Below are positions 62,369 to 62,653 of a DNA stretch of 64,000 nucleotides, one piece after another. The stretch lies in NCBI GenBank assembly GCA_963804085.1, contig CAWDOQ010000015.1, forward strand, positions 32,001-96,000, written 5' to 3'. The notes beneath the pieces are model-generated. The model did no database searches and was not told where the DNA came from. It saw only the letters and a list, made by a program, of their open reading frames with translations. The stretch's first letter is position 1, and every line of letters begins with the position of its first letter. The translations under genes and the position numbers were made by a program. Origin of the DNA: Chlamydiia bacterium. Lineage in GTDB: Bacteria; Chlamydiota; Chlamydiia; Chlamydiales; Rhabdochlamydiaceae.

Positions 62369-62653
62369 TCGTGCCCATGCCCACATGCTGTTACCCATAA
62401 GTCTAGTGTTCTCTAGAGAATAACAGGATAAGCAGGATCGGCTTCGCCGGCAGGATAAGTAGGATAAATTTCAATTGGGGTTGCAGGGGATTCTCCTGCA
62501 TCATGCATATCCTGCCGGCGAAGCCGATCCTGTTTATCCTGTAATTTAGTACTTGTGAAAAGATATGGGTAACAGCATGCGTACCCTTGCCTGTGCCACT
62601 GCCCGAAATCCGGATTAATTCGGGCACGGGCACGGGCAGGGGCACGGGCACGT
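62369..62653. repeat. Family C palindrome interrupted by a 188-bp insertion
   Basis: CGTGCCCATGCCCACATG | insertion | CATGCGTACCCTTGCC...AATCCGGATTAATTCGGGCACGGG. Confidence 0.85.
62388..62575. mobile_element. MITE-like element: 12-bp TIRs, CATG duplication, containing a family B hairpin (62423-62542)
   Basis: CATG-CTGTTACCCATA ... TATGGGTAACAG-CATG; no ORF. Confidence 0.7.

Follow-up and report, generated by a model that had tools for sequence, protein, structure and literature searches.

A likely nested insertion in a REP-like palindrome of a chlamydia-related bacterium

The DNA considered here, referred to as the window, is a single stretch of 64,000 nucleotides whose gene content fits that of the environmental Chlamydiales. 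It encodes a PPi-phosphofructokinase, the small basic protein TIGR04137, and LRR, ankyrin and SET proteins, and its glucose-6-phosphate dehydrogenase is 72-78% identical to proteins labelled Chlamydiales, Rhabdochlamydiaceae or Simkania. Eukaryote-like chromatin and signalling domains are found at 12463-13543, 28288-28953 and 26847-27908. They include a DOT1-like methyltransferase, a PARG-like protein and a pair of neighboring SET-domain genes in divergent orientation, and several LRR and ankyrin proteins are encoded in other parts of the window. The structure that forms the subject of this report sits in a divergent intergenic region. This region is bordered on one side by a 304-aa gene on the minus strand (61397-62311), which has no family match, and on the other by a 57-aa ORF, beyond which lie the small basic protein, ybeY and a corC-like gene. 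A 91-aa ORF on the minus strand (62403-62678) consists entirely of repeat sequence and appears as a predicted protein in a public collection. When searched against the protein collection it returned only its self-match among 103 candidates, and it is probably a false gene call.

The intergenic region harbors one of nine copies of a palindrome, designated family C, that are spread over the 64 kb and are all located between ORFs or at ORF ends. These are short, GC-rich, imperfect palindromes repeated in extragenic DNA, which is a defining property of REP and REPIN sequences. Six of the copies can be aligned in register; each of their arms has five hexamers, the centre is conserved, and no consistent GTAG or CGTC tag is present at their ends. 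The family also has some variant members. The copy at 55386-55493 has perfect 36-nt arms and a centre that is enlarged by tandem ATCCRA hexamers, and in the family C-like palindromes at 33640-33731 and 41040-41120 a purine- or pyrimidine-rich sequence replaces the CCGGATTAATTCGG centre.

In the copy under study the palindrome is broken within its left arm. A left stub of three hexamers on the plus strand, CGTGCC CATGCC CACATG, occupies 62370-62387, and the remainder of the palindrome is found at 62580-62652. The remainder is made up of four left-arm hexamers (62580-62603), a centre with CCGGATTAATTCGG and a right arm of five hexamers (62623-62652), and it contains an inverted repeat of 28 nt (82%). 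The outer stem also extends across the break, with 62360-62382 pairing with 62640-62662 (23 nt, 78%), and it is present in the DNA fold. As single-stranded DNA, 62360-62665 is predicted to adopt a three-way structure of -101 kcal/mol with a z-score of -14, and none of 100 shuffled sequences folded as well. The palindrome is followed on the plus strand by a flank that begins with TTAAAAAGATG (62653-62672) and is common to the neighboring family C copy (61347-61366). The initial annotation placed the whole structure at 62369-62653; the features within this span are as it described, but the palindrome stops at 62652, and 62653 is the first base of the flank.

The right half of the interrupted copy has a close relative nearby. 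The right halves and TTAAAAAGATG flanks at 61291-61366 and 62594-62672 are about 95% identical, whereas their left arms are unrelated, and the two segments flank the 304-aa gene as direct repeats. Over 59 nt (62608-62666 versus 61302-61360) the identity between these copies, which lie 1.3 kb apart, is 94.9%. This likeness suggests that one right half may have been copied from the other, either by half-palindrome duplication or by gene conversion. The arms of the interrupted copy are complementary at 25 of 30 positions at best, compared with 29-30 of 30 in three intact family C copies.

The break itself is occupied by DNA that is bracketed by a 16-nt inverted repeat, CATGCTGTTACCCATA at 62384-62399 and its exact reverse complement at 62564-62579, the two arms being 100% complementary and separated by 164 nt. 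The outer four bases of this repeat read CATG on both sides, at 62384-62387, where they are also the last four bases of the left stub, and at 62576-62579. Inside them lie 188 nt (62388-62575) bounded by the 12-nt ends CTGTTACCCATA. The left end (62388-62399, plus strand), an exact match to the 12-mer, leads into a spacer at 62400-62418, and the right end (62564-62575, minus strand) is preceded by a spacer at 62547-62563, to which the left spacer is not complementary. The 188-bp insert is bounded by terminal inverted repeats that are perfect over 12 nt, or over 16 nt if CATG is counted; it is small and non-coding, and the sole ORF that overlaps it is the repeat-derived 91-aa frame. The ends and the length agree with the initial annotation, which had recognized inverted ends with CATG bracketing 188 bp. 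The left CATG is either a putative target-site duplication or the outer four bases of the inverted repeat and, because CATG is self-complementary, a 12-nt end with a 4-nt duplication is inseparable from a 16-nt end by sequence alone. Inverted ends of more than 16 nt, or a longer target duplication, were considered and rejected, as the adjoining flanks, CCCA and CGTA, are unpaired.

By our own arithmetic (64,000 x 580 / 4^16), the window would be expected to contain around 0.009 inverted-repeat pairs of 16 nt or longer. When the whole window was scanned for perfect inverted repeats of at least 11 nt at a spacing of 20-600 nt, 29 pairs were returned, the majority of which belong to hairpin families or are 11-12 nt long, as chance predicts. 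With up to two mismatches allowed, CTGTTACCCATA has six matches in the window against an expectation of 2.17 +/- 1.29, a number that was reached in 1 of 100 shuffles; exact matches amount to three. The third of these (21337-21348) lies in frame inside a nitroreductase-family ORF (21102-21629) and has no inverted partner nearby. The chance expectation for such an extra exact 12-mer copy is about 0.01; with its coding position and absent partner, it was rejected as a third element end and is treated as a coincidence. No second copy of the ends with their spacers was found in the 64-kb window.

Within the spacers lies a hairpin of the CAGGAT-unit family, family B (62419-62546), the arms of which (62419-62465 and 62500-62546) are 47 nt long, 89% complementary and composed of CAGGAT units that recur every 9 nt. 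In the window the CAGGATNNNCAGGAT motif occurs 14 times, against 0.33 expected, and is confined to four loci. Each arm of the hairpin also carries a GC-rich 12-mer, CGGCTTCGCCGG, which can form a small stem-loop by itself. It is found on the plus strand at 62439-62450 and as a mirror copy on the minus strand at 62515-62526, the latter falling within a 25-nt perfect repeat (62433-62457 / 62508-62532), and the window contains no further exact copy. The enclosed hairpin with an extra GC-rich unit in both arms had been noted in the initial annotation and was recovered. At the tip, the DNA fold gives an innermost small hairpin at 62482-62500, TGCAGGGGA / TCTCCTGCA, with 9-nt arms that are 89% complementary. 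The right-arm 12-mer includes the heptamer GCGAAGC, an unusually stable DNA mini-hairpin, and it resembles the GCTTC-containing units of family C. A further case of a hairpin within a hairpin is found at 33741-33895, where a well-preserved CAGGAT hairpin (arms 33781-33811 / 33836-33866, 97% complementary) is centred in a more degenerate outer CAGGAT hairpin; this directly adjoins the family C copy with a non-canonical loop at 33640-33731.

The layers of the insert are very nearly concentric. The hairpin arms and the GC-rich 12-mers are centred at 62482.5 and the inverted ends at 62481.5, an offset within 1 nt. A random later insertion of the hairpin, with around 37 possible positions available to it, would have a probability of about 8% of landing so near to the centre. 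The near-exact centring is suggestive only; it is as compatible with an element that was a palindrome at the outset as with insertion aimed at a loop or centre. Concentric layers within a hairpin are not by themselves evidence of separate events. The spacers provide a different kind of information. Their complementarity, with an alignment score of -3 compared with -4.3 +/- 2.8 for shuffled sequences, was equalled in 762 of 2000 shuffles; neither spacer recurs in the window, and the three other CAGGAT hairpins in the window have neither CTGTTACCCATA ends nor spacers. Because the spacers are non-complementary and the other hairpins lack both ends and spacers, the ends are not a mere continuation of the hairpin stem, and the alternative that had been named at the outset, in which they form only an outer stem, is disfavored.

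The appearance of the site prior to interruption can be approached through its paralogs. An uninterrupted CGCATGCG is present in the arm of an intact family C copy at 34795-34802 and acts as a paralogous "empty site"; it is found further at 14954, 14987 and 34828, and the related CGCGTGCG at 24978, 55407, 55465 and 61287. Of the 11 distinct CGCRTGCG sites in the window, 8 fall within family C copies. When CACATG (62382-62387) is joined to CGTACC (62580-62585), 10 of the 12 bases are identical to CGCATG CGTGCC at 34795-34806. The rebuilt junction, CACATG|CGTACC, is of the type CGCRTG|CGYGCC that is found in the left arm of all six aligned intact copies, both differences being G-to-A. With one CATG retained, the left arm is restored as 18 + 24 nt, or seven in-phase hexamers, whereas retention of zero or two CATGs breaks the hexamer phase. 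The rebuilt left arm has seven hexamers against five in the right arm. In alignments of the arms, 27 bases of the 30-nt right arm match in a seven-unit model, and 25 of 30 in a five-unit model.

The choice of boundaries was also assessed by scoring 2,295 candidate excisions together with the undeleted sequence (2,296 in total) against a profile of the six intact family C copies, which themselves score 77-90 bits. The best score, 65.5 bits, was obtained by removal of 204 nt (62376-62579). The 192-nt excision implied by the initial annotation scored 58.9 bits, at rank 41-45, while 58.5 bits were obtained with both CATGs removed, 55.9 bits with both kept and 51.5 bits with no excision. The profile does not discriminate the retention of one CATG (58.9 bits) from the removal of both (58.5 bits). 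The 204-nt alternative lacks inverted ends as well as a flanking repeat; the 192-nt boundaries are therefore preferred in spite of their lower score, and under these boundaries our preferred reading is that the asymmetry of seven and five hexamers is explained by unit slippage or gene conversion. The proposal that excision leaving one CATG restores a family C junction is supported by the hexamer phase and by the junction type in six of six copies, and is held back by the unequal arms and the profile rank. CATG is best termed a putative target-site duplication, one that is favored by the hexamer phase and the paralogous junction, and opposed by the seven- and five-unit arms and the profile scores.

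A nested insertion is the likely explanation for this arrangement. The insert is off-centre in the family C palindrome, and simple palindrome symmetry therefore cannot account for it; the off-centre break in family C is the one unambiguous insertion at the locus. The more specific reading, to which we attach moderate confidence, is that a 188-bp non-coding element with terminal inverted repeats, either a MITE or an insertion sequence remnant, entered the left arm of family C with duplication of CATG. According to this scheme, the insert would be a non-autonomous element with 12-bp terminal inverted repeats, a MITE or a shrunken remnant of an insertion sequence, and it would have entered the REP-like palindrome at CRCATGCG, a small palindromic unit of the left arm. 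A 4-nt staggered cut followed by gap repair would duplicate CATG, and the central CAGGAT hairpin could be either a later arrival in the element or an original part of it. We infer that the element would be mobile through a transposase provided in trans, and that further copies may be found elsewhere in the genome. Most likely it is selfish DNA with no host function. The initial annotation had called the insert a MITE in a family C arm and had taken it as evidence that these repeats are insertion hotspots. The insertion into the arm is supported; the designation as a MITE goes beyond a single copy in a window that holds no transposase, and a hotspot is an overstatement for a single event. Among 71 ORF queries from the window (6 + 14 + 51, with a few ORFs repeated), none corresponded to a transposase, an integrase or a RAYT protein.

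Several other accounts of the locus have to be weighed against insertion of an element with terminal inverted repeats. The entire 196 bp, with the two CATGs counted, could represent a long variant of the CAGGAT hairpin that has gained a 16-bp outer stem and was placed by a hairpin-spreading process, for instance one that is structure-specific or acts on single strands, with neither transposase-type ends nor a target duplication. This account, which we regard as possible but rather unlikely, draws on the shared centre of the layers, on the abundance in the window of hairpins made of short unit arrays, and on the lack in the window of both a transposase and a second copy of the ends. It does not accommodate the 19- and 17-nt spacers, which are non-complementary despite their position between layers that are 100% and 89% complementary, nor the three other members of the CAGGAT family, which are without the outer layer, and the host arm falls out of hexamer phase when all 196 bp are deleted.

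Alternatively, nearby family C copies could have recombined or undergone gene conversion, bringing together a left stub of foreign origin, a spacer that carries the hairpin, and a right half that was copied from the neighbor. The near-identity of the right half and flank to the copy 1.3 kb away, the unrelated left arms, the seven and five units of the two arms and the reduced arm complementarity are all in keeping with such an origin, but it leaves unexplained why the break should coincide exactly with a perfect 16-nt inverted repeat and a CATG at either side, and the left stub with its AT-rich flank still pairs with the right end; on balance we consider it improbable. An artefact of assembly, in which repeat-rich and hairpin-forming DNA was joined chimerically, has to be borne in mind as the source is a draft assembly and palindromes are prone to misassembly. 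Here, however, both junctions are clean and symmetrical, with unique sequence in the flanks, and a chimeric join would not yield inverted ends of such precision together with a 4-nt flanking repeat that keeps the hexamer phase, which makes an artefact highly improbable.

A broader proposal would treat all of the hairpin families in the window, that is, the hexamer GC palindromes together with the CAGGAT, GTGGAC and ACGGAC unit arrays, as one class of self-nesting palindromic elements whose spread would not involve a DDE transposase. An enzyme specific for structures or for single strands would direct their entry at small palindromic sites, such as the CATG within CGCATGCG, or at hairpin centres, and the layers at 62384-62579 and the hairpin-in-hairpin at 33741-33895 would then record successive events. 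We view this proposal as speculative and decidedly improbable.

The family C centre motif gave 52 single matches in a collection of genome contigs from which the source genome was absent; these came from unrelated taxa, none of them chlamydial, at approximately the chance level. Plasmid and phage collections gave only chance matches (E >= 0.6). No match to Rfam was obtained at the gathering thresholds, and relaxed thresholds gave six generic hairpin matches, the best of which scored 21 bits against a cutoff of 79. A scan for promoter and terminator consensus sequences found none, and the HIP1 motif is not enriched in the window, so that a cyanobacterial origin was rejected. Literal strings of the sequence recurred in eleven papers which, by their titles, are unrelated and share them as primer coincidences.

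Repeats nested within repeats, and palindromes that act as insertion targets, are well established elsewhere. The small dispersed repeats of cyanobacteria, described by Elhai and colleagues in 2008, are reportedly very short and inserted inside other repeats to give nested structures, and are said to be without a terminal inverted repeat and target-site duplication structure. The likeness to the present case lies in the nesting, and the difference in the phylum and the sequences. The Rickettsia palindromic elements are likewise hairpin-forming repeats that proliferate in an obligate intracellular bacterium; they often insert in frame into genes.

A closer parallel in terms of structure is provided by QMITE1 and QMITE2 of Coxiella burnetii which, in the relevant portions of the published account (PMC5896051), are small, non-coding and intergenic, have terminal inverted repeats and short flanking direct repeats, and are found nested with further mobile DNA in the genome of this obligate intracellular bacterium. 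In contrast, the element described here is present as a single copy in the window, and no family or partner insertion sequence is known for it. The same portions describe QMITE2 as a hot spot for IS1111, with the struck copies more diverged, so that in Coxiella the MITE is the target of an insertion sequence, whereas here the element with terminal inverted repeats is the insert and the REP-like palindrome the target. REP sequences are targets of several insertion sequences, as reported by Tobes and Pareja (2006, PMC1525189). The interrupted palindrome resembles these REP, BIME and REPIN sequences in that a GC-rich extragenic palindrome family has been struck by a mobile element at a defined position, and differs in that the inserts documented there are full insertion sequences. 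Family C also departs from REP and REPIN sequences, as characterized in excerpts of PMC3733652, as it has no GTAG or CGTC end tag and no RAYT gene accompanies it in the window, where no ORF contains a Y1/RAYT domain.

For the chlamydiae, passages from two genome papers (PMC2878342, PMC4333871) deal with repeats of more than 200 bp and transposases only, and no description of small hairpin families in chlamydia-related bacteria was found in the literature searched. If confirmed, the structure would be a documented case, in a chlamydia-related bacterium, of a small element with terminal inverted repeats that has landed in a REP-like palindrome. Elements of this type can mark recent genome dynamics, confuse gene calling, as with the 91-aa ORF, and break assemblies. 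The finding is of an ordinary kind, and mildly new for the chlamydia-related bacteria.

The window contains further hairpin families, built from GTGGAC and ACGGAC units. Two GTGGAC-unit hairpins, at 8639-8728 and 59732-59840, have a common conserved centre and lie just downstream of genes, and one of them has perfect 28-nt arms. The ACGGAC units form an inverted-repeat complex at 7181-7387 in which the order of the arms, A B C ... B' C' A', is unlike that of a single simple hairpin. Finally, four small palindromes of the form GYGGTGAC..GTCACCRC are arranged at 45170-45330 as an inverted pair, with 35-nt arms that are 91% complementary.
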